Below are positions 37,763 through 60,685 of a DNA stretch of 64,000 bases, piece by piece. Under the pieces are notes generated by a model. It made no database searches, was not told where the DNA came from, and saw only the letters and a list, made by a program, of their open reading frames with translations. Source of the stretch: Escherichia phage ECP2303; sequence record PP261279.1. One strand, given 5' to 3'. A program made the position numbers and the translations under genes. Each line of letters begins with the position of its first letter. The first letter of the stretch is position 1.

Positions 37763-38657
37763 TCTCCGCGTAAATTAAACTGGAATCAGTATACTTCTTT
37801 AATGGGTAAATATCCTGTCCATAGATGCAATCATTAAACACCTCATCTACCCAAAGGCTACGCTTATATCCCATCATTTCTAAAACACTCATCTCTTCTT
37901 CGGTAAACTTATCACCACTCTTGCAAGATGTCAATACCTCATTTTGAACTCTTGCTACCTCGAATCGGTTATTGGCAATATCGCTATTGGCGATCAAATA
38001 CTCACCTAGAGGGTGTGCGGCATTAAAGATGCACAGTGGACGGCTGACGTAATAGTCTCCGGGTGTATAAAAATTGTTGAGGTCTTTCACTAGAACATTC
38101 TTATCAGTCACTTCATTTATAACATCATGCATATCGCACATCTTTATATGTTTGAGGATTCCATCTCCCATCACAAAATAAAAACTTGCTGAGACACTTT
38201 CGGCATAGATCTTACTAGATCCGTTGTAGTTGTATTTTACTCGGATGCTAACGGGGGTTTTTCCTGTCGCGTTAGCCATCATCCAAAGAAATGGCAGCTC
38301 ATACTTCTCCTCTGAGGAAACAAAAGGTGAGGTAGCCAGAGATCGAAAACCTCCAGAGAAGTTGAAAGTTACAGAACCGCTCCGGCGGTATGATACCGCG
38401 TATTCTACTTTTATATCGACGTACCCATTGGAATAGGTGTGTCCTTCATTATCTAAATATGTCCACTTATCAGACCCAGATACCAATCTACGCTCAATAA
38501 CCTTCATCACTACAGGAATTAGTGGGTTGGTACAAACCGCTTTTGAAGTAGCTTTATCATCTAAAGCCTCGTAAATTGCAGAAAGGATGTCCCCAGCTGA
38601 AAGATTGGTTGTTATGTCCTGTTTCCACCGCGTACTAAAACTGTTAAGATTTGCCAT
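37737..38657 (-). CDS. hypothetical protein (first gene of the leftward operon)
   Basis: 306-aa ORF directly downstream of the minus-strand promoter at 38698-38726. Confidence 0.65.
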   Translation of the reverse strand: MANLNSFSTRWKQDITTNLSAGDILSAIYEALDDKATSKAVCTNPLIPVVMKVIERRLVSGSDKWTYLDNEGHTYSNGYVDIKVEYAVSYRRSGSVTFNFSGGFRSLATSPFVSSEEKYELPFLWMMANATGKTPVSIRVKYNYNGSSKIYAESVSASFYFVMGDGILKHIKMCDMHDVINEVTDKNVLVKDLNNFYTPGDYYVSRPLCIFNAAHPLGEYLIANSDIANNRFEVARVQNEVLTSCKSGDKFTEEEMSVLEMMGYKRSLWVDEVFNDCIYGQDIYPLKKYTDSSLIYAEIDYDEVMW

Positions 38658-38697
38658 AAGTAAGTGCTCCTATGTTAGTTTTCTTTCGAATGGGTGC

Positions 38698-38726
38698 ACT
38701 ATATTGTGGAGTTAGAGTAAAGTCAA
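38698..38726 (-). promoter_or_regulatory. sigma70-like promoter for the leftward operon
   Basis: Minus-sense TTGACT-17 nt-TATAGT. Confidence 0.6.
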
Positions 38727-38745
38727 CACGTTTTTGATGTTGACA
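38722..38745. promoter_or_regulatory. operator-like inverted repeat shared by the divergent promoters
   Basis: GTCAACAcgtttttgaTGTTGAC overlapping both -35 elements. Confidence 0.45.
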
Positions 38746-38768
38746 TCTGTTGAGACAATTGATACGAT
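38740..38768 (+). promoter_or_regulatory. sigma70-like promoter for the rightward operon
   Basis: TTGACA-17 nt-TACGAT. Confidence 0.55.
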
Positions 38769-38799
38769 TTCTTCACTTACAGAGCACGAGAGACGACGC

Positions 38800-39777
38800 A
38801 TGAATCTTGAAAAATATTATACACCAGAAGAGTTAGAGCGCTTGCTCAAAAAATATAGACGCAAACAGAATAACGCACGGAAACGAGATATAGAGTTCGA
38901 CCTGTCATGGGAAGAATACCTCCTATTTGGTAAAAAACTTTTAGGAGATGGAGTATGCGACTATACCCTTATACCTTTTGACATGCACACAGATGAAAAC
39001 GGGCTGGGGAATCCTTTCTACCCATCTTTGGAGCGTATAGATGATGAAGGTCCTTACGCAATTGACAATTGTTGTGTGGTAGGGTTGAGGTGCAATGCTC
39101 TGAAAGACTGTCTGGTAGATAAAAAGACTGCAATCCTGATTAAAGACAAAACTGATCGAAAAATTGTCCAGCAGATGATGCTCCACCTGAGTGAAGAGCG
39201 TATGGAGAAGTTGAAAGGTGATTATACTTTTGAAGATTTCATCTTGCAATACGGGACAGAAGAAGATAAACTAGCACTATTTGACGAAGAGGAAGAAGAT
39301 ATGTCACCGATGCAGGATTTTAAAAATTTCATGGCTGATCGTGCAGCCAACAAACACATTTCAGACATCGTAAACGAGACTGTGACAGAAGAAATTGAAG
39401 AACAGACATCTGAAGAGGAAAAAGAGCCTCAGGTGGTTGAAGAGGAGATTGCAGAAGAGGTTCCTGCACTGCCTGATGATGTTGAGATTGCTAAGGCTTA
39501 CACTTTCTATTGTCAAACGTTCTACGATGCAGGTATGAAAGTTGACCTGTCGTTCAGCCAATTTAAGAGTTCGTATATTCGCAAATGCTGTGCTTTAACT
39601 GGTGAACGTCTCGGAGCTGGACTTAAACCACTGTTGGTGACCGACTGGAATAAAGGTTTCACTAAAGGAAACTTTATGGTAGTATCTCCAATTATGGAGA
39701 AAGCTATGACAGATCTTATGAAGACCACCCGCATGACAATGACCGAGTTGGCAGGTATTTTCAAACACGTTAAATAA
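38800..39777 (+). CDS. HNH-endonuclease-like domain protein
   Basis: ORF-track frame from 38734; start moved to the ATG at 38800 because the first ATG overlaps the -35; CDY...SLERIDDEGPY..DNCCVVGLRCNALK resembles an HNH core. Confidence 0.45.
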   Translation: MNLEKYYTPEELERLLKKYRRKQNNARKRDIEFDLSWEEYLLFGKKLLGDGVCDYTLIPFDMHTDENGLGNPFYPSLERIDDEGPYAIDNCCVVGLRCNALKDCLVDKKTAILIKDKTDRKIVQQMMLHLSEERMEKLKGDYTFEDFILQYGTEEDKLALFDEEEEDMSPMQDFKNFMADRAANKHISDIVNETVTEEIEEQTSEEEKEPQVVEEEIAEEVPALPDDVEIAKAYTFYCQTFYDAGMKVDLSFSQFKSSYIRKCCALTGERLGAGLKPLLVTDWNKGFTKGNFMVVSPIMEKAMTDLMKTTRMTMTELAGIFKHVK

Positions 39778-39810
39778 TGACAGGGGCCATTGGCCCCTTC
39801 TGGAGTTTTA

Positions 39811-41271
39811 ATGGATAGCAGAAGTTCAGAAATCATTGCCTCACAGAAAGATGATGCCCTGAGAATGTTGCAGGCTGCACGTATGTATCTCCTTGAAAAG
39901 CTGCCGTTTTATGGCACACTGCTGTCAGGATTGCAGTTCGTAGAAAACCACACATGGTGCTCCACCATGGCAACCGACCATAAACGCATCTATTACAGCC
40001 CTGAGTTCATTATGGGATTGGCTGATGAACGCAAGGTTATTCTTAAGGCTTCTCTAACTGACGAACAGTTTGAGATGGCTGAGGTTTTCTATTCCCTCAA
40101 ATCTGTGAAAGAGGTGGCTTTTCTTCTGTCACACGAGGTGGGGCATATTATCTGTGATCACCTGGTCCGTGGTAAAAGCTTCGAGCCGGAACTGTTTAAT
40201 ATTGCTTGTGATCATGTTATCAACACAGGTCTTGTGGTTGACTTTAGCAAGCCTCCCTGTGTTTTCTTCCCGAAGGGGAAAAGCACTACGTTCGTGAAAG
40301 GTAAGCCTTTTGGTTTCTTAGCCAGCTGCTACTGCGACATGAGGTTTCATGGATGGATTGCTGAGAACGTCTATGCGGTTCTTGATAAGCAAAGAGATCA
40401 GAATAACGGTAAAAGTAAGAGCGGTAAAGGTGAGAACTCTCAAGGGGATAAGCGACAAACCGATGATCACATGAGTGGGAACGGTGGCACCAGCGATGAT
40501 CTTGGAAAGGCTATGGGGTATGATCAGCCACAACCTGTAATCAGCCAATCTGATAAAGATCAGGCCATGCAAGACTCTGGTGACATGCTGGAAGCAGCAA
40601 TGCAAGCTTCCGGAGGTCGTTGCCCCGAGGCGGTGCGTGAGTTTGTCAAGAACAGAGGTAAGCCTGTAATCAACTATATAGACATCATTAAGCAACGCAT
40701 GTTGTCTAAACGAAAGGCCGAACTGACCTACAGAAAACCTGGTCGCCGATCTGGGTCTTTGACCAGCACAATGCGAAAAGTTGGGGCTATAAACAAGAAC
40801 CAGCACGTTATTGTTCCTGGTCGTAATCCGGAAAACACCATAGATATTGTGGTAGCTTTAGACGTTTCTGGCTCGATATCTCAAAGAACTTTAAAGAAAA
40901 TGTTCAATGAAATCACCGGATTGTGCAATCTGTATAAAGAGTTTAAGGTTACAATGTTCTGTTGGTCAACTGAAGTCGGAGAGGTTAAAGTATATACTCG
41001 CGGCAACATAGACGAAATGATCAACTATGAGGTCCACTCAACATGGGGCACAACAGCTGCTTGCGTGTTCGAGTATCTGGATGCCAACATACCAAATGCA
41101 AAAGATGTCATCGTCCTGACCGACCTATACTTTGAGCATAACTTTGAACAAAAGGCTGTTGACAACAAGTGGAAAAAGTACGATACTTTATGGGTTCTCA
41201 CCGAAGGGTATAATAAAAATTATATCCCTAGCTTTGGTAAAACTGTGGAATTAATCGAGTACGCTAAGTAA
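39811..41271 (+). CDS. vWA-domain protein with N-terminal HExxH putative metallopeptidase domain
   Basis: HExxH in LLSHEVGHIICDH; MIDAS-like DxSxS in VVALDVSGSIS; ATG at 39811 after ggag. Confidence 0.7.
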   Translation: MDSRSSEIIASQKDDALRMLQAARMYLLEKLPFYGTLLSGLQFVENHTWCSTMATDHKRIYYSPEFIMGLADERKVILKASLTDEQFEMAEVFYSLKSVKEVAFLLSHEVGHIICDHLVRGKSFEPELFNIACDHVINTGLVVDFSKPPCVFFPKGKSTTFVKGKPFGFLASCYCDMRFHGWIAENVYAVLDKQRDQNNGKSKSGKGENSQGDKRQTDDHMSGNGGTSDDLGKAMGYDQPQPVISQSDKDQAMQDSGDMLEAAMQASGGRCPEAVREFVKNRGKPVINYIDIIKQRMLSKRKAELTYRKPGRRSGSLTSTMRKVGAINKNQHVIVPGRNPENTIDIVVALDVSGSISQRTLKKMFNEITGLCNLYKEFKVTMFCWSTEVGEVKVYTRGNIDEMINYEVHSTWGTTAACVFEYLDANIPNAKDVIVLTDLYFEHNFEQKAVDNKWKKYDTLWVLTEGYNKNYIPSFGKTVELIEYAK

Positions 41272-41286
41272 GAGAGGATGTTATTT

Positions 41287-41544
41287 ATGGCAACAGAGGT
41301 AGTAATTAAAGCTGAACGCCCAGTTAAAAAAGCTATCAACACGTTCCCTGTGGGGACCATTGTGAGCATGATCACAGAGTCAGGTCGTGTATCTACGCTG
41401 CTGATTGTGAAATCTGCATGTTCTTCTTGTGTGTGGGCTTACGATCTGGACGAGAAAGAACTAAAAGATTTTGTTGGGGAGCTGAAAGCAACCGAGCTCG
41501 ATGCTCGTATCGAAGTATTTGGTGAAACTATGGAGGAAGAGTAA
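41287..41544 (+). CDS. small paralog-family protein
   Basis: Start at MATEVV...; similar in outline to 41544..41807 and 41809..42042. Confidence 0.55.
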   Translation: MATEVVIKAERPVKKAINTFPVGTIVSMITESGRVSTLLIVKSACSSCVWAYDLDEKELKDFVGELKATELDARIEVFGETMEEE

Positions 41545-41807
41545 TGACCACGAAAATCACTATTGCAGAACCGAAAGCTAACACGCAACCTATCGAAAAG
41601 TTTAAATGCGGCGAGGTGGTAACATTCACACCAGATAATGAAGATGCTAAGATTTTCGCAATGGTCACAGCTGAGTGGATGTGTGACAACACCACACAGG
41701 TTCTGCGTTTTGACACCTATCTTACCGATGAAATCAGGAACGACAAGATTGTGACTGGTGTGGATACTGAGATTGTTTTCTACAAGAGCTTTTTAGAGGG
41801 TTTCTGA
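41544..41807 (+). CDS. small paralog-family protein
   Basis: 87-aa ORF. Confidence 0.6.
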   Translation: MTTKITIAEPKANTQPIEKFKCGEVVTFTPDNEDAKIFAMVTAEWMCDNTTQVLRFDTYLTDEIRNDKIVTGVDTEIVFYKSFLEGF

Positions 41808-41808
41808 T

Positions 41809-42042
41809 ATGGCAAAAATTCGAAAATTATCTAGCAATCAGGTTGTGAAAGACTTCGAATCTGGAGAGATTCTTTATGTTCGTGATGCAGATGACGAAGG
41901 TGAAGATCTCGTTATGTTGGTGGGGCACGCTGAGGACGGATGCATCCAAGCTGTTTTTCTTGAAACAGCTATGGTGCACTGGATAGAGCTGGACTTGAAA
42001 GCACGAAAACCTAAAGCAGAAATCCTGATTTACGAAGATTAA
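41809..42042 (+). CDS. small paralog-family protein
   Basis: 77-aa ORF. Confidence 0.6.
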   Translation: MAKIRKLSSNQVVKDFESGEILYVRDADDEGEDLVMLVGHAEDGCIQAVFLETAMVHWIELDLKARKPKAEILIYED

Positions 42043-42058
42043 CAAAAAGGAGATAGCC

Positions 42059-42508
42059 GTGTTGAGCAAGCGTGAATGCGACAGCATTAGCCTGAATTCT
42101 TATAAGAAACAATGGTTTGGGGTAGAAGTTTGCCGACTGCGGCTAGGCTCCTACCTGAACTTCGTTTATTATGAGAGCGATAGTCGTATCGTTTCTTATG
42201 AAGTGTTCTACACTAAGAACACCTTCGAACTGCGCCGTAAAGTGGATGGCGGGAGAACTACCGCTCAGAATAATTGGGAAACTATCCTACCTACAGATGT
42301 TATAGGAAGTCCCCTGAATGTATCTGAAGATGAAAATCTTATGGTTCATGCTATGATGGGACTTGACAGCTTAGAGCTGGCAATCTATGATATGTCCATC
42401 GAAGCAGTTAAGCTGGACTACATCGAAAACACTTTAGAGGAAGGTATCAAGAAGTTTCTCAGTGAGAAATTAAAAGACCACTTTCATAAGGAGCTATACC
42501 TGTTATGA
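42059..42508 (+). CDS. hypothetical protein
   Basis: 149 aa; GTG start after aaaggag. Confidence 0.55.
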   Translation: MLSKRECDSISLNSYKKQWFGVEVCRLRLGSYLNFVYYESDSRIVSYEVFYTKNTFELRRKVDGGRTTAQNNWETILPTDVIGSPLNVSEDENLMVHAMMGLDSLELAIYDMSIEAVKLDYIENTLEEGIKKFLSEKLKDHFHKELYLL

Positions 42509-42750
42509 AGACCCGTAAAGAACGTAACAAAATTTTACCTGGAGCTCTCGAACACCTGATGAAGTGCAGATCTATTTGGCACTCTGCCAAGGAAGGGCAG
42601 AAGGTGGTTGTGGTTAGTGACAATACCAACCCGTTTGGAGATTATACCACTATGATGGCCCCGTATGTCCGTGATGGTGTTGTGGAAGTGGTCCCTTACA
42701 ACGGTCTGCATGAACGGCACTTTGAAAGCACTTTGCTAGTGGAGCTATAG
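42505..42750 (+). CDS. hypothetical protein
   Basis: 81-aa ORF; ATGA overlap with the upstream gene. Confidence 0.6.
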   Translation: MKTRKERNKILPGALEHLMKCRSIWHSAKEGQKVVVVSDNTNPFGDYTTMMAPYVRDGVVEVVPYNGLHERHFESTLLVEL

Positions 42751-42752
42751 TC

Positions 42753-43319
42753 ATGGCGGTCAATGTGGCTTACAACACAGGAAAGCTTGACAGAGACATT
42801 GGGTGTCTTGTCCTTTCAGATACAGAAGAGTATTGGGGTTATGGGTTGCTGTCAGACCCACACCCGAGCAACCTTGTATCAACAGTGCTATACCGCTACG
42901 ACCCTGTGCCAACGGTACACGACAAAGACATTCACGACCTTCGGATCAAGTGTCTGGAAGATCTGCTGAACAATGGTTGCAATGATCTGAGGGTAGCCAA
43001 AGAGAAGCTTACAAACATTCACAAAGAGGAAGTGATGAGCACCCTCAGTAAGAGATCAGTGCACAAAAAGATGATGCTGAACTTTGCAATGGGTATCTAC
43101 ATGGACGGGTATAAGGGAGGTGATCCGATTCTCAAGCTTCGCTGCCCAACACTGTGGGAAAGGGTGGTTGACAGTAAGGACGGCACTGCCCTGCTTGAGC
43201 TTCACACTGCAGGTTGGATATGGCGGTATGTTGATGGATACCCTCTATGGGCATGTGGGCCTGGGGAATTTGTTGACAGGCCTAGTGCGGTGGTGGACCT
43301 GCTATTGCAGTTTGAATAA
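42753..43319 (+). CDS. hypothetical protein
   Basis: 188-aa ORF. Confidence 0.65.
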   Translation: MAVNVAYNTGKLDRDIGCLVLSDTEEYWGYGLLSDPHPSNLVSTVLYRYDPVPTVHDKDIHDLRIKCLEDLLNNGCNDLRVAKEKLTNIHKEEVMSTLSKRSVHKKMMLNFAMGIYMDGYKGGDPILKLRCPTLWERVVDSKDGTALLELHTAGWIWRYVDGYPLWACGPGEFVDRPSAVVDLLLQFE

Positions 43320-43374
43320 AAGTGAGATATAAGGTGTTCATGCACCTACTAACAATACAACAAGAGAGACTGAG

Positions 43375-43650
43375 ATGACGAAAGAAGAAGCTGACGTATT
43401 AGACTTTGCACTGGAGGCTACGCAAGAGGCTCTGGTGTTAGCTTGGAAAATGAACCAGCGTGCTGCAGAATGCAACCGCCGAATCAATGAGATCCTGGGC
43501 ATGTCTATGTATGATTTCACCATGCATGCTGGAGAGATTCCTGAATTAACTGCTGAGATGAATGATCTTGACGATAAAATTAATATCATTCTGAAGACAG
43601 CAGAAACAACTCACCAAACCGCCCGTAAATTTATCAACGAGAAGGTGTGA
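43375..43650 (+). CDS. hypothetical protein
   Basis: 91-aa ORF. Confidence 0.6.
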   Translation: MTKEEADVLDFALEATQEALVLAWKMNQRAAECNRRINEILGMSMYDFTMHAGEIPELTAEMNDLDDKINIILKTAETTHQTARKFINEKV

Positions 43651-44117
43651 ATATGGACTACAGCTACTGCGGGGAAGAGGTCCCTTTTAACTACAGCAAT
43701 CTTACCACAAGCAATCCATATGAGACACGCCACGGCACACACATCATTGCCATTGACTTTGATGGAACATTTAATGCGAGTCCTTTCATCTTCTCCCGCC
43801 TGATCAGGGACCTGAAGAAGGAGAGGTGGACAGTATACCTTGTGACTTTCCGATTCATTACTCAAGACAATGTGGACATTGAGTATTGGCGCAAGGAGCT
43901 TGATGTTGGTGTGTTTTATACTGGAGGTATTCAGAAGGCAGCCTATCTGGCGCAGTTTGATATCTACCCAGATATTTGGATTGATGATTCTCCGGCATGT
44001 ATTCCGGCTAAAAATCAGTTAGAGTTTGCAATGAAGGAGATCGAGTATAAGTCTGAGGCTAAGCGGAACGGATGGCCTTTTATTATTGAAGATTACCCAG
44101 ATCCTGAACCGGAGTAA
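43647..44117 (+). CDS. HAD-superfamily phosphatase-like protein (5'(3')-deoxyribonucleotidase-like)
   Basis: HAD motif I IIAIDFDGTF and motif IV-like IWIDDSP; 156 aa. Confidence 0.5.
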   Translation: MNMDYSYCGEEVPFNYSNLTTSNPYETRHGTHIIAIDFDGTFNASPFIFSRLIRDLKKERWTVYLVTFRFITQDNVDIEYWRKELDVGVFYTGGIQKAAYLAQFDIYPDIWIDDSPACIPAKNQLEFAMKEIEYKSEAKRNGWPFIIEDYPDPEPE

Positions 44118-44122
44118 GAGCC

Positions 44123-44293
44123 ATGAGGCGAAGATATCATTACCTGATGTGGAAGTTATATCATGGTGCTGCTAAAGCTTACCGCACCGTGTTTAGTAAT
44201 GACAATCACTGCATTATGTTACGCCTTGCCGCCATTGGACATCACAATGAGTGGATTCGTGCAATCGTAATAGGTGACAAAGATTTTAAGTAA
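44123..44293 (+). CDS. hypothetical small protein (56 aa)
   Basis: Hand-found ORF MRRRYHYLMWKLYHGAAKAY... with RBS ggag; below the ORF-track cut-off. Confidence 0.3.
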   Translation: MRRRYHYLMWKLYHGAAKAYRTVFSNDNHCIMLRLAAIGHHNEWIRAIVIGDKDFK

Positions 44294-44323
44294 AGTATTG
44301 CTTTCTAGATGGAGACTGATTAA

Positions 44324-44704
44324 ATGTGCAAGTGTAAATCCTATAATTGGAAAGTGAAAGGTGCCAAGCATCAAAATGTTATCGTTGATGTGCCTAAAAA
44401 GCTCCGTGACGGCAAAAAACGTGTGTGCCTTGATAAGTGCATGGCTAAGCCTATCATGAGTCTATGGGCGGCAGGATTGAAAACTCTAAACTGCTGCTGT
44501 GGTCATAACAAAGATGTTCCAAGTATCATTATCCCAGAAGATGCAGACCCTAAAGCTTATGCAAAAATACTGACCCGCTACCCCAGCACCTTCCTGATCG
44601 GAAAATGGTGTCACGATGAACTTCAATGGTGGGTAGCATACGGTAGTATAGGTACTGCTTTTGGCTTTCCAGCCCTGTCAGAGCGCTACGTAAAAGTGTC
44701 ATAA
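44324..44704 (+). CDS. cysteine-rich protein
   Basis: 126 aa; multiple Cys clusters (MCKCKS, LNCCCGHN). Confidence 0.6.
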   Translation: MCKCKSYNWKVKGAKHQNVIVDVPKKLRDGKKRVCLDKCMAKPIMSLWAAGLKTLNCCCGHNKDVPSIIIPEDADPKAYAKILTRYPSTFLIGKWCHDELQWWVAYGSIGTAFGFPALSERYVKVS

Positions 44705-44869
44705 TCGATTTTAAGGCCTCAAACGAGGCCTGTGCCTTCATAAATTGTCCTACCCTATGTGATTACCCACCCTGAACAAAATACCTCTCCAAAATCGTTT
44801 AAAATTAAGCTTGACCCCAACATCAGATCTATGTATGATTACCTCACCAACCAAACAGAGGAGATCGTC

Positions 44870-45277
44870 ATGAACAATCTTGCAGATGTAAATGTCGAAA
44901 TTGTTAAACTAAAGTTCTTGGGCTTTCGAGACCCTTATTCTTTAACAGCTATACTAATGGACACTCACTTCACACCAGGTAAAGAGTACACAGCCTTCCG
45001 TTATATTTGTGGAGATCACGAATCAGCTTATAGTGTGAATACAAACCTCGGCGAGGGATATTTCATCAGAGATATCACAGATCACTTATGGGGAATGTGG
45101 GAGTTGGTGGAAGAAGAGAATAAATCCCTTCCTAAAGAGATTTGGGTGCACACCTTCCACACAGGTAAGTTTGGAGGTACGGAACATAAGTCTATCCACT
45201 ATGATGAAGAAAGTGCCATCAAACAACAAGCTGTGCTTGGTGGATCTGTAGAAAAATTTTTTAAATGCGAGGACTGA
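44870..45277 (+). CDS. hypothetical protein
   Basis: Start at MNNLADV... with RBS gaggag. Confidence 0.55.
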   Translation: MNNLADVNVEIVKLKFLGFRDPYSLTAILMDTHFTPGKEYTAFRYICGDHESAYSVNTNLGEGYFIRDITDHLWGMWELVEEENKSLPKEIWVHTFHTGKFGGTEHKSIHYDEESAIKQQAVLGGSVEKFFKCED

Positions 45278-51164: not shown

Positions 51165-51212
51165 TGTGTTCTCCAGATAAGAAAACCGCCCCGTCAGGAG
51201 CGGTTAGATATA

Positions 51213-52958
51213 TTAACGTTGTGCAATTACTACGTCTACGATATCACCAACACCACAATACGTTAATTGCAGCAAGGTAACACTGTTAGCCTTGTTGTTA
51301 ATAACAGGTGTTGCCGACAGGATAGCATACTTATCGTGCAAAGTCACGTTGTGACCTACAGCATCCTGAATTACATAGATAACCGCAGTGAATGGATAAG
51401 GTTTATCTTCCGCTGATGTCCCAGGCCACTGTCCTATTGTAAAATCCCCTTTCGCGTGAACAACATACATACTGGCCTGCCCGTTAGGTGTCCATGTCCC
51501 ACTGGACGCGTCAACCTCCTCTAAATCAAAATCTACCTTTCCTGCGTGGAAAGTAGGGGCAGTAATGGTTTTACCCGCCTCAATTTCTTGAGAGGTGGTT
51601 ATCTTGCCACTGGAGTTAATGCCATTACAGACAAAGTTGACATTAGAGAAGTCAGGCAACCACCCAGTCACCGTGCCGGATATTTCAAGGTTGTGAACAG
51701 AGGTGGTGCCAGTCCCTGCTGCGTTTAAACTGACATCTCCATTTACCTGCAAGTTGCGGGTAACGTTGCAGTTTTCAGAGTTTGCAGTTGTTGCAGTTAA
51801 AGTGGTTGTTGTCAGCTCGGTAATTACACCTTTGTTGGCTGTAAGCCCTTCTCCTTCAAAAGTTGCACGCTCATTGACTCTTAAGGTATTCAGAGCTATG
51901 TTTTGGATAGAGGCCGTACCTCGAATAACTACAGACCCGCCAATCTCCAAATCGCCATTTATCAATGCATCACCAGTGCTTTCAATATAGCTAGGATAGA
52001 TCATGGTGCCATCGACAGAGTATGTTATCCCTGTAACGGTACCTGTCACCTCAAGGTTCTTAACCCTGGTGGTCCCATCGACCTGCAATGTCGGTTCGGT
52101 TGCTGCCTTCATGGCATTACCACGAATGTACACGTAGTCAAAAAAGTTATTACCCAGACCATCAAAATGCACATCGTTATTATTAGCCACTGGTTTCCCA
52201 GAAGTTATAGTGTCAGCTATAACCCTGTGGGTGGACACTTCATGAGGTTGCAGCTCTGTACTTCTCCAGTCTGCATGCTTAGGATCGCTCCACGCAAAAG
52301 TAAGTGTAGAAGTATTTGCCGTGAGGATTAGATTCCTAAAGCGTGCAGTAGAATCTGCCCCATTAACAGGTCCATGTAAGGTAAGGGTGCCACCAACTAT
52401 AGTGTTAGCGAGTTCTGTAAGACCTTTTACCACCAAAGATCCTACAGTAACTTTCATCCCCTCCATGGCTTTAAATATGCTATCAACATAGTCAACAACA
52501 AACTCTGTGTTTGCTATGGACTCTGACTTATCGTCCATTGGAGGTGTAGGTACTCGCGGGTCACCTTCGAACCTTGGGCTGTTAAGTTTTGCGTAGTATT
52601 TTGCCATTACTGCAGAGTCGGTGTATAATCTCCAGTTTGGAGATTGTGAAGGATCTGCTGGCATTCTAACCGGGTTAGATTTTGATGCTGCTGGGGCGTA
52701 CCACCACTGAGTGCCTGTATCCCCTTTAAACTCATACAACTGGTTAAAAACTGTTGTGGATGCACCATACGCCCAAGGGATTGGTGGCGTTTTAAAATAA
52801 AGGGTGTCAAGCATGGCTTTTCGTACCGTAGGGATAGTGGTCCCATCCTCTACGACAACTTCATCCACAGCGTTACCGTTGACAATCAAGTGCAAACGTT
52901 CAGAATCAACAATTACTTGATCTACCGCCTGCTCGAAGCTTGTCATGTCTTGCGCCAT
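51213..52958 (-). CDS. tail fibre/tailspike-like protein
   Basis: 581 aa; Thr/Gly/Asn-rich beta-helix-like repeats. Confidence 0.65.
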   Translation of the reverse strand: MAQDMTSFEQAVDQVIVDSERLHLIVNGNAVDEVVVEDGTTIPTVRKAMLDTLYFKTPPIPWAYGASTTVFNQLYEFKGDTGTQWWYAPAASKSNPVRMPADPSQSPNWRLYTDSAVMAKYYAKLNSPRFEGDPRVPTPPMDDKSESIANTEFVVDYVDSIFKAMEGMKVTVGSLVVKGLTELANTIVGGTLTLHGPVNGADSTARFRNLILTANTSTLTFAWSDPKHADWRSTELQPHEVSTHRVIADTITSGKPVANNNDVHFDGLGNNFFDYVYIRGNAMKAATEPTLQVDGTTRVKNLEVTGTVTGITYSVDGTMIYPSYIESTGDALINGDLEIGGSVVIRGTASIQNIALNTLRVNERATFEGEGLTANKGVITELTTTTLTATTANSENCNVTRNLQVNGDVSLNAAGTGTTSVHNLEISGTVTGWLPDFSNVNFVCNGINSSGKITTSQEIEAGKTITAPTFHAGKVDFDLEEVDASSGTWTPNGQASMYVVHAKGDFTIGQWPGTSAEDKPYPFTAVIYVIQDAVGHNVTLHDKYAILSATPVINNKANSVTLLQLTYCGVGDIVDVVIAQR

Positions 52959-52967
52959 GATTTCTCC

Positions 52968-53234
52968 TTAAGCTTTTTGCTCTTCGTTTTTAACGTGGTC
53001 AGGGTGCTGGCAACCCCACCGGAGCGAGATGAATTTGCTAATAAGCTGGGGGCAGGCTACTGAAGGTGCATATATCCACGCATACCATTCAGGAAGCGTA
53101 TCATTATACCCCATATGAATAAACACCCCAGTCATCACCGCCATGCCTATGTTCGACCATAGCTTAGATTGGGATACTTTCGTAGGGTCATCAGATGCCG
53201 CAACCAGTCCCCATAAAAACTGAGTTAGTTTCAT
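52968..53234 (-). CDS. small membrane-associated protein
   Basis: 88-aa ORF with a hydrophobic segment. Confidence 0.5.
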   Translation of the reverse strand: MKLTQFLWGLVAASDDPTKVSQSKLWSNIGMAVMTGVFIHMGYNDTLPEWYAWIYAPSVACPQLISKFISLRWGCQHPDHVKNEEQKA

Positions 53235-53245
53235 TTACCCTCTTT

Positions 53246-54292
53246 TTAAGCATAAGATATAGTGATCCATTGACCGTTTACAAGTTTTTGGATAGCACCT
53301 GTCCAGTAATCACCTTGATAAGGGTGTTTATAAGCGTAGTTACCAGAGCACATCACATGTCCAGGGTAGACTCTTGACTCTCTGTAGGTGGTTTTGAAAC
53401 GGTTTGCTATCCTTACATCGTCAACCCCTCTACTGGGCATAGGGACAGTAAGGTTACCACTACCGTCTGCGCTGTTACCGTTTACCCTGCGGACCACGTT
53501 TCTTCCACCAACGGTTGCATATTGGCCTCTAACGGTTTCATCGTTACAATCAACTCTTCCACCTATTTGAGCGCTTCCGCAGGATTGTTGTCCGTTAACA
53601 GTGGCTCTTGGTATCGTGACCGCATTGGCATTTGCAGAGGAACTTTTTGCATCGTTGCATTCAAGATTTCCTTGGATAGCCAGTCTTGCACGGTTGGCAG
53701 TTATAGCATTGAGCTTCATAGCCGAAAACACAGGCTGCCCACCAGAAGGTTGAAATCTCCAACGGAACCCGTCTATTTGGTGAGAAGGATCATCAAGGTC
53801 TGTGCCGTCAGCACCACCGATGTTGTCCATAATCCAGAAATCCATCGTCGTCTTGTCTGGCGTTATGGTGGTATATATTGCCGCACTGTCTGTTGACGCA
53901 GATGCAAACTCGATTCTTTGGAGACCTAAAGTTTGAGTCTGAGTCATTATGTCTCCAGACTTGTCAACATATAGATCGTCCATTTCTTCAGGTGAGTATA
54001 CATTGAGAACTTGACGTGCAGCAGCTTTGTCTGGAACGTCTGCTAGATTATTAGTGACCCTTAAGAATCTATTATCCCATCCTGGGACAACATCTTCTGT
54101 TAAATGCTTCAACCACGCAGAAAGCATGTGAAGTTCAAAGTTAACAACTTCACATGCCATTCTTTGTGTCATATCCCAACCTTTCAATCTCTCTTCTTTT
54201 TTTGGTTGAGACTTATTCAACTCTCCCGTATTTTCAAGCACAACATCCTGATTGGCCCAAATATCAAGAGGGATAACTGGTTTAGTCATCAC
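53246..54292 (-). CDS. tail fibre protein, paralog 2
   Basis: 348 aa; shares PL(D/E)IWA N-terminus and LQKLVNGQWIT(I/V)(S/N)YA C-terminus with 55304..56344. Confidence 0.7.
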   Translation of the reverse strand: MMTKPVIPLDIWANQDVVLENTGELNKSQPKKEERLKGWDMTQRMACEVVNFELHMLSAWLKHLTEDVVPGWDNRFLRVTNNLADVPDKAAARQVLNVYSPEEMDDLYVDKSGDIMTQTQTLGLQRIEFASASTDSAAIYTTITPDKTTMDFWIMDNIGGADGTDLDDPSHQIDGFRWRFQPSGGQPVFSAMKLNAITANRARLAIQGNLECNDAKSSSANANAVTIPRATVNGQQSCGSAQIGGRVDCNDETVRGQYATVGGRNVVRRVNGNSADGSGNLTVPMPSRGVDDVRIANRFKTTYRESRVYPGHVMCSGNYAYKHPYQGDYWTGAIQKLVNGQWITISYA

Positions 54293-54340
54293 GTTCTCCT
54301 GAGAAAATTCCTTAGGACTATTTTAACACTTTAGAGAACA

Positions 54341-54363
54341 AAATGCAAGAACGGAGTCCTTTC
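54341..54363 (-). terminator. candidate terminator/attenuator hairpin
   Basis: Minus-sense gaacggaaaggactccgttc followed by T-rich tract. Confidence 0.35.
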
Positions 54364-54378
54364 CGTTCTGACCTTTGT

Positions 54379-54693
54379 TTACCTTTTACTATGCTCTACG
54401 AGCATGTGCAAAATCTTTTGTACATCAGCTCGGATGCCGGAGACATCTGTCCTGACATCCTGCTTAAGGTCGTTAATATCGGCCTCTAGCTTGCTTAACC
54501 GGGTCTCGATAACGGAATCAAGTCTATCTTTTGTAACCATACTGTTTTTCACTAAGATGAGGTCTTTCTCCAGTTCATCCAACCTCTGGGAAATGCCTTT
54601 CCATTTGGTGTGCCACTGGTTGAAAGCCCATACACAGATCGGGACAACGGTACCCATACAGATACCGTACAATGCCGCCAAATCCAACTCCAC
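54379..54693 (-). CDS. membrane protein with coiled-coil region
   Basis: 104 aa; N-terminal hydrophobic helix then heptad-like charged region. Confidence 0.55.
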   Translation of the reverse strand: MELDLAALYGICMGTVVPICVWAFNQWHTKWKGISQRLDELEKDLILVKNSMVTKDRLDSVIETRLSKLEADINDLKQDVRTDVSGIRADVQKILHMLVEHSKR

Positions 54694-54704
54694 AACACCT
54701 CCTC

Positions 54705-55289
54705 TTAGAGGGTAGGTCGCTCCGGGAAGAAAATGTCAGGGGCTTTAGATGTATCTATTTCAAGAAGTTTTACCCTGTACATTTTCAAATCTCTGATGTT
54801 ACGTTTCTGGTCATCAGTAAGATCATATTCAAGGTCAATCATGTCTTGATAGGCACCAATTCTAGCAGTAGCCCAAGCAAGTTCTGTCTCTATGACACCC
54901 TCTGCCTGTTGAACAAAGAATTCATTGTCTGTGACAAATTCATCACCAACTAAACGCAAAGCGTCGTGGTGAAGCATAATGTTTTCTGGTACCTCTTCTT
55001 TTTTGGCGATAACCACACGAAGACCTGGAGCAGGCCATAAGGCATCAGGTTCTTCTGTAGATGTCTTAAGAATTCCCTTCTCGTCAACAAGTAGGAAGAT
55101 ACAACCTGGATTTTCTTGTCGCAATGTTCGTGACTGCACATACCAATCGCCATCATCATTACGTAAAAAATACCCAGTGTATGCGGTGTAATCCTCAACC
55201 TCTTGAGGGGTCAGCTCCTTGGTTTCCTTGTTGGCGTGGTATTCGCCAGATCCCGGTTGGTAAAGTTTAAACTCTTGAAGTATTTTCAT
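54705..55289 (-). CDS. tfa: tail fibre assembly chaperone (lambda Tfa-like)
   Basis: C-terminus RDLKMYRVKLLEIDTSKAPDIFFPERP matches the recalled lambda Tfa C-terminus [27 protein letters not shown]; follows a tail-fibre gene. Confidence 0.8.
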   Translation of the reverse strand: MKILQEFKLYQPGSGEYHANKETKELTPQEVEDYTAYTGYFLRNDDGDWYVQSRTLRQENPGCIFLLVDEKGILKTSTEEPDALWPAPGLRVVIAKKEEVPENIMLHHDALRLVGDEFVTDNEFFVQQAEGVIETELAWATARIGAYQDMIDLEYDLTDDQKRNIRDLKMYRVKLLEIDTSKAPDIFFPERPTL

Positions 55290-55303
55290 GCTAGTCCTCC
55301 GAT

Positions 55304-56344
55304 CTATGCATAATTAACAGTGATCCATTGACCGTTTACAAGTTTTTGTAAAGGTCCTGCCCAGTAAGTTGAACCACGCATCTCTTTTTTGTCACCGAAA
55401 TGCCAGCCTGTGACAACGTAGCCGTTGCGGATTGGAGATTCAGAAACGCCGTCCACAAGTCTTGCACCGATTCTGATGTCTTGCACACCTGTCTGCGGGA
55501 TAGTGATCGTTACATCACCGTTACCGTTAGCCGTCACTCCGTTCACAGAGCGAACCACATTTCTGTTACCGACAACACAGTGCTGGCTTCTTACAACCAT
55601 ACTGTCACAACTTGCACCACCATTAACATATACTGACCCAGCCGTCAATTGACTAGCCACATTGCAGTTGGTGAATGTTGCTGTATTACTGATAGTAAGG
55701 TTATTACACCTCATGTTATCGACAACTTCAACATTGCCTACCACTTTCAACAGCGCACGGTTAGCCGTGATCGCGTTAAGGTACATCAAAGTGAACTCTG
55801 GATTAATATCCGGCTGAGTTGGCTGGAATCTCCAACGAAACGCATCTACTGTAGATGTACCGCCATCATCAAACGACCCGGTATTATCACTTAACCCAAA
55901 GTCGAGAGTTGTCTTATCTGGGCCAATAGTCGTCTCTATCCAAGCCTTATCTGTCTCGGCAGCTTTAAAGTTGATACGTTGCAAACCCAAGGGGCCTGTC
56001 ATTGTATCACCTGTAACTTTTACATACCTGGCGTCTGCCTCTTCCTTGGTAATAATCCCAAGGTTTCTACGGGCAACAGGGATGTTCAAAAGATCACTCA
56101 AGTTATTATCACGTACCAGATAACGGCCTTCTTGAGCGGGGATCTGCTCGTCAGCAATATATTTTGCCCAAGTTCCGAGCATATTGAAAATATAGTTAAG
56201 TTCTTCACATGAGGGCTTTTGACCAAGATCCCAACCTTTTCTCCACAAATCATCAATCGGGCGTAGCCTGTTCTGTCTGTGGGTGTTAGGCAGAACCTGA
56301 TCCTCCTCTGCCCAAATCTCTAATGGAAAACTAGGTTTTGACAT
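55304..56344 (-). CDS. tail fibre protein, paralog 1
   Basis: 346 aa; conserved termini shared with 53246..54292; followed by tfa. Confidence 0.7.
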   Translation of the reverse strand: MSKPSFPLEIWAEEDQVLPNTHRQNRLRPIDDLWRKGWDLGQKPSCEELNYIFNMLGTWAKYIADEQIPAQEGRYLVRDNNLSDLLNIPVARRNLGIITKEEADARYVKVTGDTMTGPLGLQRINFKAAETDKAWIETTIGPDKTTLDFGLSDNTGSFDDGGTSTVDAFRWRFQPTQPDINPEFTLMYLNAITANRALLKVVGNVEVVDNMRCNNLTISNTATFTNCNVASQLTAGSVYVNGGASCDSMVVRSQHCVVGNRNVVRSVNGVTANGNGDVTITIPQTGVQDIRIGARLVDGVSESPIRNGYVVTGWHFGDKKEMRGSTYWAGPLQKLVNGQWITVNYA

Positions 56345-56356
56345 TTTATCTCCTGA

Positions 56357-58429
56357 TTATGAGAAGTCTGGCGGGACAACATCTTCTACATACCCTTTCA
56401 GAGCAACCTGCCCCATATGAAGCACGGTAGAATCTCTAGCGGTAACAGTGATGCTGTCAGACATTACTTGCGGGTATGCCCACACATACTGTTTTACCTC
56501 AGGGTATCTATACTCTATAGTTGCCATGTTTCCGCAAATACATCTCCATAAAAATTCTTGGTAATTCCTAGTTGGGTCATAGCCATATACCGGAGCAAGC
56601 TCTTTACTAGGAACGAACCCTGCAAGGTATTGTATTTCAGACGGTTGCCAACCTAACCTAACGATAGGTATGTTTACAGACTCTTTTGCCTTTTCAATAC
56701 CTCCCTGCATCACCCAATCGTAGCACTCGGTGCAGAAGAAATCAAGAGCACCTGCTTCCTTTTTATATTGGTCAGCAAGGTTCAGCTTTTGTGTAAGCTC
56801 GGTTTCCATAATGGTTGGGAAAAACAGCAAAGCTGTCATCTGAGCTGATGCAGCGTGTGCCTTTACTGCCTTTGAAATAGCCGCAATACGAGCGCCAAGC
56901 TTACCACGACAAAATGCCACATACTTGTCGTAAACACCGCCAGTTTTAGGATCGTCAATAGTCCCAATATCTAATGCATACTCACCTGTCTCATCATAAA
57001 ACGCCTGCTTTGTAGGGTAATCATAAATACAAGGCCTACGAGTATCGGTATTGTACCACCACCACGGTTCACCAACCTGCATAATCACTGGCAGGTTGTT
57101 TCTCATAGCGGCTGATGCAAAATTCTTAAATACTGCAGTAAGGAAATTCATACCCTCTTCAATGGTTGGAGATAGGAGGTAGCTACAAGGTGTATACCCT
57201 GTTTTAGCGTAGTTATCGTTCCAGTCTCTTTGGGTCCATTCCAACGGGCAGGCATCGCTGAAAAGCTCAAAACTTACAGATTGCATAACGTCGAAGTTAT
57301 GTCGTTTGGCATTGTACATAAAATCATCATGCCATTTATAAGCTGCAGCGTTTAGCGCTCCTGTTCTGTTTATAGACCATTGGGTTCCGGACCATGTGTA
57401 GTCATAATAATGACTCATACCAACATAATGGTTTATGGTTCCGGTATATCCCAGACGCTTGATATTGTTCAACACCCTTAAAGGAGAGACGTTCCACATA
57501 TCGTCATATGCGGTGCAGATCCCAACGTCGTGCTCTCTCACCTGAATATTATTAAGTTGCATCATTTTCCAGCCTGTGTCTGGCTGAAGCAAATCTAGGC
57601 GCAACTCACACTCTACATTTTCCGTTCTCGGGTCTGTGCTATTACTTACCCAGTCTTTAGGCATGAGTGGTATTAAAATCCTTCTCACCTGCCGAGGATC
57701 AACACCCATCATGTTGTTGTTCTGGTCCATCCCGACGCAGTCCTCGAAATCAATATGAATTTCTGCAACATTCTTATCCTCTGAGATGCTGACAGCATAT
57801 TGAGCTAAAGGAACATAGATGATTGTGCCATCAACAAGGTCTACAGTCATAATCATCTTTTCAGGAGTGGAGAAGTTGCTGGCGTTGGTTATTGACATTC
57901 TGAACCAAAGTTTGGTGTTTCTCATCTCATAGTGATCATCAAACCCAATACCGAAATGGTCATACTTGTCAACTGTTTCCCAAATGCATCCAGCCATACC
58001 CCCATATGTTCTTGACACTAAACGGTTAATACAACAGTTGTTATCTGCAACAATACAGGTACTTTCAGTCTGCTGAGTAGTTGTAACCCAATATCTTGGG
58101 TGGAACATTCTCTCCTCGACAGTATCCCAAGATATCCTGTCAAGATTCTCATCTGAAACTATTGTACATTTCGCCCTTTGTGTCCCGATCATCACCCCTT
58201 GAGATTTTGATGAAAACTCCATAAAGAAGCTTCTTGGCAACCTGTTGGGTAATTTGTCAACAATTTCCACCGGAATCTCAATACTGGTTGCCCCGACTGG
58301 GATAGTTACATCGCCCTCAACATGATCATAATCCCTACCAGGAACGGCAGTATCCTGAACTGTGCGGTAATGAAACTGCGCAGCCATTGTAGAGTAATCA
58401 CGGTAAGGTTTAAAAACAGCTGTTGCCAT
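56357..58429 (-). CDS. tail/baseplate-associated protein (690 aa)
   Basis: Long ORF within the tail module; no catalytic motif recognised. Confidence 0.65.
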   Translation of the reverse strand: MATAVFKPYRDYSTMAAQFHYRTVQDTAVPGRDYDHVEGDVTIPVGATSIEIPVEIVDKLPNRLPRSFFMEFSSKSQGVMIGTQRAKCTIVSDENLDRISWDTVEERMFHPRYWVTTTQQTESTCIVADNNCCINRLVSRTYGGMAGCIWETVDKYDHFGIGFDDHYEMRNTKLWFRMSITNASNFSTPEKMIMTVDLVDGTIIYVPLAQYAVSISEDKNVAEIHIDFEDCVGMDQNNNMMGVDPRQVRRILIPLMPKDWVSNSTDPRTENVECELRLDLLQPDTGWKMMQLNNIQVREHDVGICTAYDDMWNVSPLRVLNNIKRLGYTGTINHYVGMSHYYDYTWSGTQWSINRTGALNAAAYKWHDDFMYNAKRHNFDVMQSVSFELFSDACPLEWTQRDWNDNYAKTGYTPCSYLLSPTIEEGMNFLTAVFKNFASAAMRNNLPVIMQVGEPWWWYNTDTRRPCIYDYPTKQAFYDETGEYALDIGTIDDPKTGGVYDKYVAFCRGKLGARIAAISKAVKAHAASAQMTALLFFPTIMETELTQKLNLADQYKKEAGALDFFCTECYDWVMQGGIEKAKESVNIPIVRLGWQPSEIQYLAGFVPSKELAPVYGYDPTRNYQEFLWRCICGNMATIEYRYPEVKQYVWAYPQVMSDSITVTARDSTVLHMGQVALKGYVEDVVPPDFS

Positions 58430-60617: not shown

Positions 60618-60685
60618 GTCACTCCTCCGGTATGAAAATCTCTACAAGGTATTTTACCAAATTTTGTAACAATAGTCAATCTGAG

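Follow-up and report, generated by a model that had tools for sequence, protein, structure and literature searches.

Escherichia phage ECP2303 carries two short tail fibre (STF) genes and a single chaperone gene between positions 53,246 and 56,344 of the 64,000-nucleotide stretch analysed here (PP261279.1; this whole stretch is called the window). The window belongs to Vequintavirus, the rV5-like myophages, and the locus is the short-tail-fibre module of that group. The two fibres, STF-A and STF-B, are orthologues of rV5 gp33 and gp30, and the only chaperone gene of the locus, a Tfa-type gene orthologous to rV5 gp32, lies directly downstream of STF-A. The best overall explanation, which is favoured with moderate confidence, is that STF-A represents the ancestral short fibre, that STF-B is an old duplicate of it, and that the two have kept matched C-termini.

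Two fibres of this kind, first read in the initial annotation as receptor-binding proteins of different specificity, are an ordinary and published feature of rV5-like phages. Both the observation and this interpretation were already known, as both are in print. In rV5, gp30 and gp33 were described as paralogues (42-43% identity), together with the idea that they serve two chemotypes of lipopolysaccharide (LPS) (Kropinski 2013; PMC3606486). Moreover, Vequintavirinae sensu stricto were reported to encode two paralogous short tail fibres with a chaperone, homologous to Mu GpS/GpU (Maffei 2021; PMC8594841). Comparison with relatives makes modest additions to this picture, namely a gene replacement, a separate promoter, a docking domain specific to each paralogue, a lineage with near-identical tips, and homogenisation of the 3' ends.

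Two intact, diverged paralogues

The gene calls of the initial annotation held up on inspection. STF-A and STF-B are intact minus-strand open reading frames of 346 and 347 codons (348 for STF-B if the GTG at 54292 is used instead of the ATG), and their products are 43% identical (BLASTP, E=1e-95). A Tfa-like chaperone follows the upstream copy only, and the frame between the fibre genes, described as a transmembrane/coiled-coil protein, encodes 104 residues, hydrophobic in an N-terminal segment and coiled-coil-like in the rest. The description of the paralogues as sharing their ends and differing in the centre was only partly borne out. The first ~20 residues (60% identity) and the last ~16 residues (75%) are indeed conserved; however, the centre is the best conserved region (residues 113-215, 60%), and the N domain (residues 1-112) reaches only 38%. 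Identity is 32% in the distal shaft (residues 216-300) and 42% in the tip (residue 301 to the end). At the nucleotide level the two genes are 49% identical outside an exact 30-nt run. The paralogues are thus not identical throughout, and neither copy carries inactivating lesions.

Across the 3.5 kb around both fibre genes, the locus is 100% identical in nucleotide sequence to Escherichia phage ECP2309 and 98-99% identical to more than 100 rV5-like Vequintavirus phages. By tblastn, STF-A is 99.7% identical to rV5 gp033 and STF-B at least 95% identical to gp030 orthologues. The gp33/gp32/gp31/gp30 locus of rV5 has the same gene order, gene sizes and P030 promoter sequence as the window, with no material difference between them, and the window isolate is ECP2309-like. 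In BASEL phage records the same genes are labelled 'short tail fiber protein' (twice) and 'tail fiber chaperone'.

In the phage collection, STF-A was found at 95% protein identity or more in 115 records and STF-B at 90% or more in 116, and each listed record of the rV5-like kind has two fibre places. Among seven Vequintavirus genomes, the ratio of nonsynonymous to synonymous substitution (dN/dS) was 0.00-0.03 for STF-A, 0.05-0.10 for STF-B and 0.00-0.14 for Tfa. The variable positions, 8 in STF-A and 20 in STF-B, are scattered. By these measures both copies are functional genes, conserved in ~116 phage genomes under strong purifying selection. Because both are intact in those genomes and dN/dS is low, a decaying copy is ruled out.

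Relation to phiTE, Mu and T4 fibres

STF-A residues 1-108 match the short tail fibre of phage phiTE (9cuy, chain entry 9cuy_c; E=1.4e-19, 70 bits), and residues 286-343 match residues 440-501 of the Mu tail fibre protein S (5yvq_A; E=1.7e-6). The N-terminus of the phiTE fibre (residues 3-92) docks on wedge 1 of the baseplate (PMC11972413). STF-B matches the same phiTE N-terminus more weakly than STF-A does (residues 1-83; E=1.9e-8, 37 bits), and when it was searched alone against the PDB the Mu S tip was not among its significant matches. A family profile made of both paralogues and their relatives was also searched against the PDB. It matched the phiTE docking joint (E=2.2e-25) and the Mu S tip (E=1.7e-10), as well as the shaft motif repeated in 9zd7, a further short tail fibre of solved structure. 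Since STF-B alone has no significant match, its place in the Mu GpS-type tip family follows only from its homology to STF-A. Both fibres match PHROG 4465 'tail fiber protein' from end to end, and STF-B retains the C-terminal motif of the family, QKLVNGQWIT.

The locus resembles Mu GpS/GpU, and the P1/P2-type fibres with Tfa, in having a tip and shaft motif homologous to Mu S and a PF02413 chaperone gene after the fibre gene. Mu alternates two tips and two chaperones by inversion of its G segment, whereas the window holds two complete fibre genes in the same orientation and one chaperone gene. Because the two genes share their orientation and lack inversion repeats, both fibres of the window, unlike those of Mu, would be expressed together. 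By analogy, the locus resembles Mu S/U in folding and not in switching.

The fibres have the same proposed role as T4 gp12, namely binding of the LPS core at the baseplate before contraction. The chaperone of T4 gp12 is gp57A, whereas that of the window is of the Tfa type. Similarity to gp12 was reported from HHpred (Kropinski 2013; PMC3606486); no T4 gp12 chain was found among the PDB matches at E up to 1 for STF-A, STF-B or the family profile. The phiTE and phi92 homologues point downward, while T4 gp12 is folded under the baseplate; in phi92 the homologue gp147 is the downward-pointing fibre III (PMC13450770).

STF-B in the slot of a lost membrane-protein gene

The short fibre and Tfa of other Vequintavirinae and of phi92-like phages share with the window the homology of the N-terminal wedge-docking joint, the C-terminal motif, the downstream Tfa gene and a neighbourhood of small membrane proteins. 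These phages have one copy of the fibre, whereas the window and two uncultivated lineages described below (L018-like and L017-like) have a second copy with a diverged docking domain. In the one-copy phages the gene order is STF, Tfa, a 104-aa protein, a 157-aa protein, an 88-aa protein and a fibre. This arrangement was found in Av-05, TH18, the Seunavirus phages R7 and GAP31, a Klebsiella phage, CR3, Kashira and a metagenomic contig (L020). The record of R7 (L004; PQ002170.1, Salmonella phage vB_Sen_SG_WM_RUS_R7) carries a Demerecviridae taxonomy line, yet its fibre locus is collinear with that of GAP31, a Seunavirus of the Vequintavirinae.

The 157-aa gene, which encodes a polytopic membrane protein, was found by tblastn in 107 phage records, none of them rV5-like. 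In the window the same search returned only noise (E at least 0.095), with no remnant visible. As the gene is absent from rV5-like records and present in relatives, STF-B is seen to occupy its slot. The 104-aa and 157-aa genes of the relatives overlap by 4 nt, whereas a spacer of ~86 nt precedes STF-B in the window. No Tfa gene follows STF-B; STF-A, in turn, stands immediately after the baseplate wedge genes and before the Tfa gene.

Further comparison addressed which copy is the derived one. N-domain identity to single-copy orthologues from other genera is 54-58% for STF-A and 38-49% for STF-B; over the middle region the two paralogues cluster with each other. Among 5.8 billion proteins searched, none outside this phage group was closer to STF-B than STF-A is. 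In the phage collection, the closest relatives of STF-B are A copies or other B copies, and matches outside the genus stay below 40%. The simplest reading is that STF-A is the ancestral copy and that STF-B derives from an old duplication within the lineage. Horizontal transfer as the main origin of STF-B was rejected, given the clustering in the middle region and the absence of a closer relative outside Vequintavirus among the 5.8 billion proteins.

Two docking domains kept apart

Two-copy modules with the same architecture as the window were also found in two uncultivated lineages. L018 and L019 are identical to the window at 87% in STF-A, 78% in STF-B and 78% in Tfa. In L017 the corresponding values are 73% for STF-A and 49% for STF-B, and its 208-aa Tfa is 48% identical by BLASTP (44% in a global alignment). 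L017 is a 135-kb contig from Logan SRR24653873, and the IMG/VR contigs L023, L025 and L030 (sample 3300045988) are L017-like. No GenBank phage was found to carry the STF-B type of the L017 lineage at more than 60% identity.

Synonymous sites between the two-copy lineages are saturated, with synonymous divergence (pS) of 0.7-0.9, which indicates that the duplication is old. Over codons 1-270, quartet site patterns sort the sequences by paralogue, and the B copies are therefore mutual orthologues. In each of the three two-copy lineages, A and B share 38% identity in the N domain, while among orthologues across lineages this domain is 62-79% identical in B and 75-88% identical in A. Since the two types are kept across lineages, the stable difference between the paralogues lies in the docking domain.

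It could be supposed that A and B nevertheless compete, either for the same six wedge-1 sites or by forming mixed trimers, so that each virion would carry a random mixture of the two as a form of bet-hedging. Both N-termini are homologous to the phiTE docking joint, their first ~20 residues are 60% identical, and each wedge has a single short-fibre position in the maps of phi92 and phiTE, all of which would suit a shared site. However, the N domains differ to the same extent in every two-copy lineage, with the B type kept and A keeping the type of the single-copy phages. Two N domain types kept apart fit two different partners better than one shared site, and competition of this kind is considered unlikely.

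The tips tell a different story in L017. There the A and B tips are 81% identical, and both belong to the A type known from Av-05 and phi92-like phages. A divergent tip on STF-B was found only in the rV5-like and L018-like lineages. Because L017 keeps both paralogues with near-identical tips, different specificity is not the sole reason for having two copies. One might go further and suppose that STF-B is no receptor binder at all, being instead a structural or adaptor fibre, such as a strut to another lateral fibre, in which tip differences are incidental. This would agree with the L017-like genomes, where it is the N domain and shaft that stay different, with the contact of the phiTE long fibre with the short fibre (PMC11972413), and with the missing Mu S tip match of STF-B alone. 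STF-B nonetheless keeps the QKLVNGQWIT motif and the tip architecture, aligns over its full length with receptor-binding homologues, and has a tip under purifying selection, which makes an adaptor role quite improbable.

A predicted separate transcription unit for STF-B

The ~86-nt spacer before STF-B contains two conserved elements. The first is a hairpin with an 8-bp stem and the loop AAGGAC, followed by TGCATTTTGT. Across five two-copy lineages, compensatory changes were found at four of its eight pairs, and pairing is preserved in 89% of cells, compared with at most 61% in slid controls. By fold and conservation it looks like a terminator or attenuator. The second is a promoter-like element, which includes the P030 motif TGTTAAAATA at 54319-54328, ~30 nt upstream of the STF-B start codon. 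Its blocks TTGCATTTT and TG[C/T]TAAAATA are invariant in five lineages whose intergenic sequence otherwise differs. P030 was listed as a putative late promoter in rV5, with a sequence identical to positions 54290-54330 of the window (Kropinski 2013, Table S4; PMC3606486).

Similar elements bound the neighbouring genes. A P036-like motif (60650-60659) lies upstream of a wedge gene, and a t028-like terminator (51184-51205) follows gp28. Together with P030 these elements yield two predicted units, one from gp36 to gp31, including STF-A and Tfa, and one from gp30 to gp28, with STF-B first. STF-B is predicted to head a separate late transcription unit behind the conserved hairpin and promoter.

Homogenised 3' ends and a possibly shared chaperone

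The exact 30-nt run shared by STF-A and STF-B encodes the QKLVNGQWIT motif. In 200 codon shuffles, the longest run was 13 nt. Within the last 21 codons, 11 of the 13 identical residues use the same codon, compared with 33% elsewhere in the gene (Fisher p=4e-4). Over the last 18 codons, pS between the paralogues of one genome comes to 0.30 for the window and 0.38 for L018, whereas over the rest of the same pairs it is 0.75-0.93; between orthologues, the same last 18 codons give 0.52-0.59. Moreover, both L018 paralogues read CTG-GTC-AAT-GGT-CAG and both window paralogues CTT-GTA-AAC-GGT-CAA, which amounts to four genome-specific sites within 13 nt. The pattern suggests that a short tract underwent gene conversion between the 3' ends of the paralogues at least once. 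The isolates ev168, WM, HMD6 and L027 differ at 1-4 sites in the 30-nt tract. A second patch of shared codons (7 of 8, alignment codons 31-60) has no genome-specific site pattern and was treated as chance.

The Tfa protein contains the Caudo_TAP domain (PF02413) in residues 121-192, scoring 45.8 bits against a gathering cut-off of 22.1; a phmmer search of the PDB gave no meaningful match. Mu-type Tfa binds the distal fibre and remains on the virion (PMC9608196). In the lineages compared, the last residues of both paralogues covary, ending in ..NYA/..SYA with the 194-aa Tfa and in ..QTL/..QTL with the 208-aa Tfa. This fits, without proving, a shared dependence of both fibres on the single Tfa.

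Taken in its strongest form, the evidence on docking and on the 3' ends would make STF-B a second, architecturally separate fibre set with a docking site of its own, which would have arisen when the membrane-protein gene was displaced. Use of the shared chaperone would be kept through recurrent conversion of the last ~30 nt, leaving the receptor-binding surfaces upstream free to diverge. This is put forward as a tentative possibility.

Cassette exchange in a sister genus

The initial annotation had offered a recombination-generated host-range cassette as its second interpretation, and within the genus this found no support. Both copies are conserved at 90-95% or more in ~116 genomes, with no hypervariable region, and flanking inverted repeats of the kind that bounds an invertible segment were not found. 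Among close relatives the tip shows no sharp drop in identity and no raised dN/dS (at most 0.10). With that many conserved genomes and such low dN/dS, a frequently swapped cassette within the genus is ruled out. An absence of notable allelic variation in the short fibres of Vequintavirinae had been reported before (Maffei 2021; PMC8594841). An invertible segment as in Mu was rejected as well: both genes lie on the same strand, the chaperone gene is single, and the search for inversion repeats returned no more than a weak 18-nt inverted repeat (78% complementarity).

Comparison with relatives did reveal the exchange of a tip together with Tfa, in the sister genus and not among the sampled Vequintavirus genomes. 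Residues 1-280 of the single STF are ~99% identical between the Avunavirus-like phages Av-05 (L003) and TH18 (L006), and their neighbouring genes are 97-100% identical. In contrast, the tip (from ~281 to the end, ~75 residues) is 35-48% identical and Tfa 31%. The TH18 tip resembles those of CR3 and phiTE. Classical block exchange of tip plus chaperone thus operates in the sister genus.

This exchange, along with the moron-like promoter and preceding hairpin of STF-B, is what could be said for STF-B itself as a recently acquired or often exchanged cassette, moron-like or comparable to the Mu G segment, that changes host range. Against it stand the conservation and low dN/dS of both copies, the common orientation of the genes with their one weak inverted repeat, and the published lack of allelic variation. 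Moreover, the nearest relatives of B are A or other B copies, A and B cluster in the middle region, and B orthologues occur in synonymously saturated lineages, as expected of an old duplication. Such a cassette is regarded as very improbable.

Two proposed kinds of short fibre on one baseplate

That STF-A and STF-B are receptor-binding proteins of different specificity remains plausible from their sequences, as the two diverge distally, in the part homologous to the receptor-binding tip of Mu GpS. All Vequintavirinae members tested required the outer-core glucose (Maffei 2021; PMC8594841), and receptor genetics for phage LL12 likewise showed a requirement for LPS outer-core glucose (PMC7229145).

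In the favoured explanation, STF-A is the ancestral short fibre, of a Mu-GpS-like kind, and gene order and published promoter predictions group its transcription with that of the baseplate wedge genes and the sole Tfa gene. STF-B is an old duplicate placed in the slot of the 157-aa gene, heading a predicted late unit with gp29 and gp28. The two have kept different N-terminal domains for docking on the baseplate, and in this lineage their distal tips differ as well. Their extreme C-termini have been kept alike, partly by short-tract gene conversion. Both fibres would form trimers, with the one Tfa serving the folding of each. They would be mounted as two sorts of short fibre, probably at non-equivalent docking positions, and would bind two LPS core-region variants before the sheath contracts.

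Several results weigh against this explanation or parts of it. In the BASEL phages, dependence on the same LPS core sugar is uniform, with no sign of two specificities on K-12. The tips of L017 argue against different specificity as the general purpose of the second copy. As regards the virion, gp30, gp32 and gp33 are said in the text of the rV5 paper to have been detected by total phage proteomics (Kropinski 2013; PMC3606486), but its Table S5 (Additional file 5) lists 19 loci, including 27, 34, 37 and 41, and not 30, 32 and 33. Six test peptides from gp29-gp33 were not found in the rV5 mass-spectrometry supplement. With gp30, gp32 and gp33 missing from Table S5, incorporation of both fibres into the virion is unconfirmed. 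An AlphaFold2 monomer of STF-B, from a nine-sequence alignment, was unusable (predicted local distance difference test, pLDDT, 33; predicted template modelling score, pTM, 0.22). The signal of gene conversion is limited, resting on a short tract and few independent events, and the L017-like genomes hold stable, paralogue-specific synonymous differences in that same tract.

Neighbouring genes

The features of the locus are collected in Table 1. All genes of the fibre stretch lie on the minus strand, and in transcription order they are orthologues of rV5 gp34, gp33, gp32, gp31, gp30, gp29 and gp28.

Table 1. Position and supporting match of each feature in the short-tail-fibre module, listed in transcription order (window coordinates).
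Feature	Position	Strand	Match or basis
690-aa TIM-barrel 'non-contractile tail sheath'-like protein (rV5 gp34 orthologue)	56357-58429	-	
STF-A, 346 aa (rV5 gp33 orthologue)	55304-56344	-	phrog_4465, E=1.8e-171, residues 1-346
30-nt run in STF-A, codons for QKLVNGQWIT	55319-55348	-	identical to STF-B 53261-53290
Tfa-type chaperone, 194 aa (rV5 gp32 orthologue)	54705-55289	-	PF02413, 45.8 bits; phrog_136, E=2.1e-36
104-aa hydrophobic and coiled-coil-like protein (rV5 gp31 orthologue)	54379-54693	-	phrog_5345, E=1.8e-48
Hairpin between gp31 and STF-B	54348-54369	-	terminator-like match and fold
Promoter-like element TTGCAT-N17-TGnTAAAAT	54319-54345	-	motif match; includes P030
STF-B, 347 aa (rV5 gp30 orthologue)	53246-54289	-	phrog_4465, E=2.7e-166, residues 2-348
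30-nt run in STF-B	53261-53290	-	identical to STF-A 55319-55348
88-aa predicted membrane protein (rV5 gp29 orthologue)	52968-53234	-	phrog_1322, E=2.7e-32
581-aa fibre protein (rV5 gp28 orthologue)	51213-52958	-	

The 104-aa protein lies outside the duplication and is kept after the Tfa gene in all Vequintavirinae examined. Its orthologues in Av-05, Seunavirus, Klebsiella phages, CR3 and Kashira occupy the corresponding place and are 31-33% identical, and phrog_5345, which it matches, is a PHROG of unknown function. A weak match (26%, E=3e-5) links it to the 'lipoprotein' encoded after the chaperone gene of a phi92-like phage, and that phi92-like counterpart in turn weakly matches an Rz-like spanin PHROG. 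The 88-aa protein is a conserved downstream neighbour in one-copy and two-copy lineages alike. Its identity is 50-56% with its positional counterparts in Av-05, Seunavirus and TH18, and 37% (E=3e-19) with a phi92-like gp144-type protein; one GenBank record names it 'tail fibre assembly protein similar to phi92 gp144', and the L017 lineage carries a 118-aa version. A trio of small membrane proteins (104 aa, 157 aa polytopic and 88 aa) sits inside the tail-fibre module of all Vequintavirinae examined (in Av-05, L003 6638-7701), and the rV5-like group lacks its middle, 157-aa member. Local Pfam had no model for the 157-aa, 104-aa and 88-aa proteins or the 581-aa fibre; the labels PF26221, PF26208 and PF26209 come from precomputed contig look-ups only.

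In the gp34 orthologue, a Calx-beta domain is joined to the N-terminal and TIM-barrel domains known from 'non-contractile tail sheath' proteins (PF23844, PF23845). Among the lineages compared, this orthologue occurs only in Vequintavirus, the L017-like and L018-like lineages and Av-05/TH18. Elsewhere in the window, the sign of the GC skew changes at ~38000-45000 (positive between ~39 kb and ~44 kb), and just upstream of a 1878-aa fibre gene there are plus-strand genes; together these mark a change of transcription direction beside the late tail-fibre block. No tRNA genes were found in the window. Between 16 and 21 GenBank records named 'Campylobacter phage', with Campylobacter jejuni as host (MG065655, MG065674, MG065666, MG065690 and others), are ~98.5% identical to E. 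coli rV5-like phages at the locus, which suggests a mislabelled host or contamination.

Significance for rV5-like phages

Phages of the rV5 type are common in collections of E. coli phages and in therapy cocktails. The last receptor step of these phages is still ill defined. The comparative results leave the published picture unchanged; what they supply are constructs, in the form of constant and variable domains, a promoter site and a lineage with near-identical tips. Knowing whether gp30 and gp33 differ in the LPS core types that they bind, and whether each depends on gp32, would guide the engineering of host range and help to interpret resistance mutations in waa genes. If STF-B does prove to be a separate fibre set, the module would be a compact case of a dual-receptor baseplate that evolved without duplication of its chaperone.

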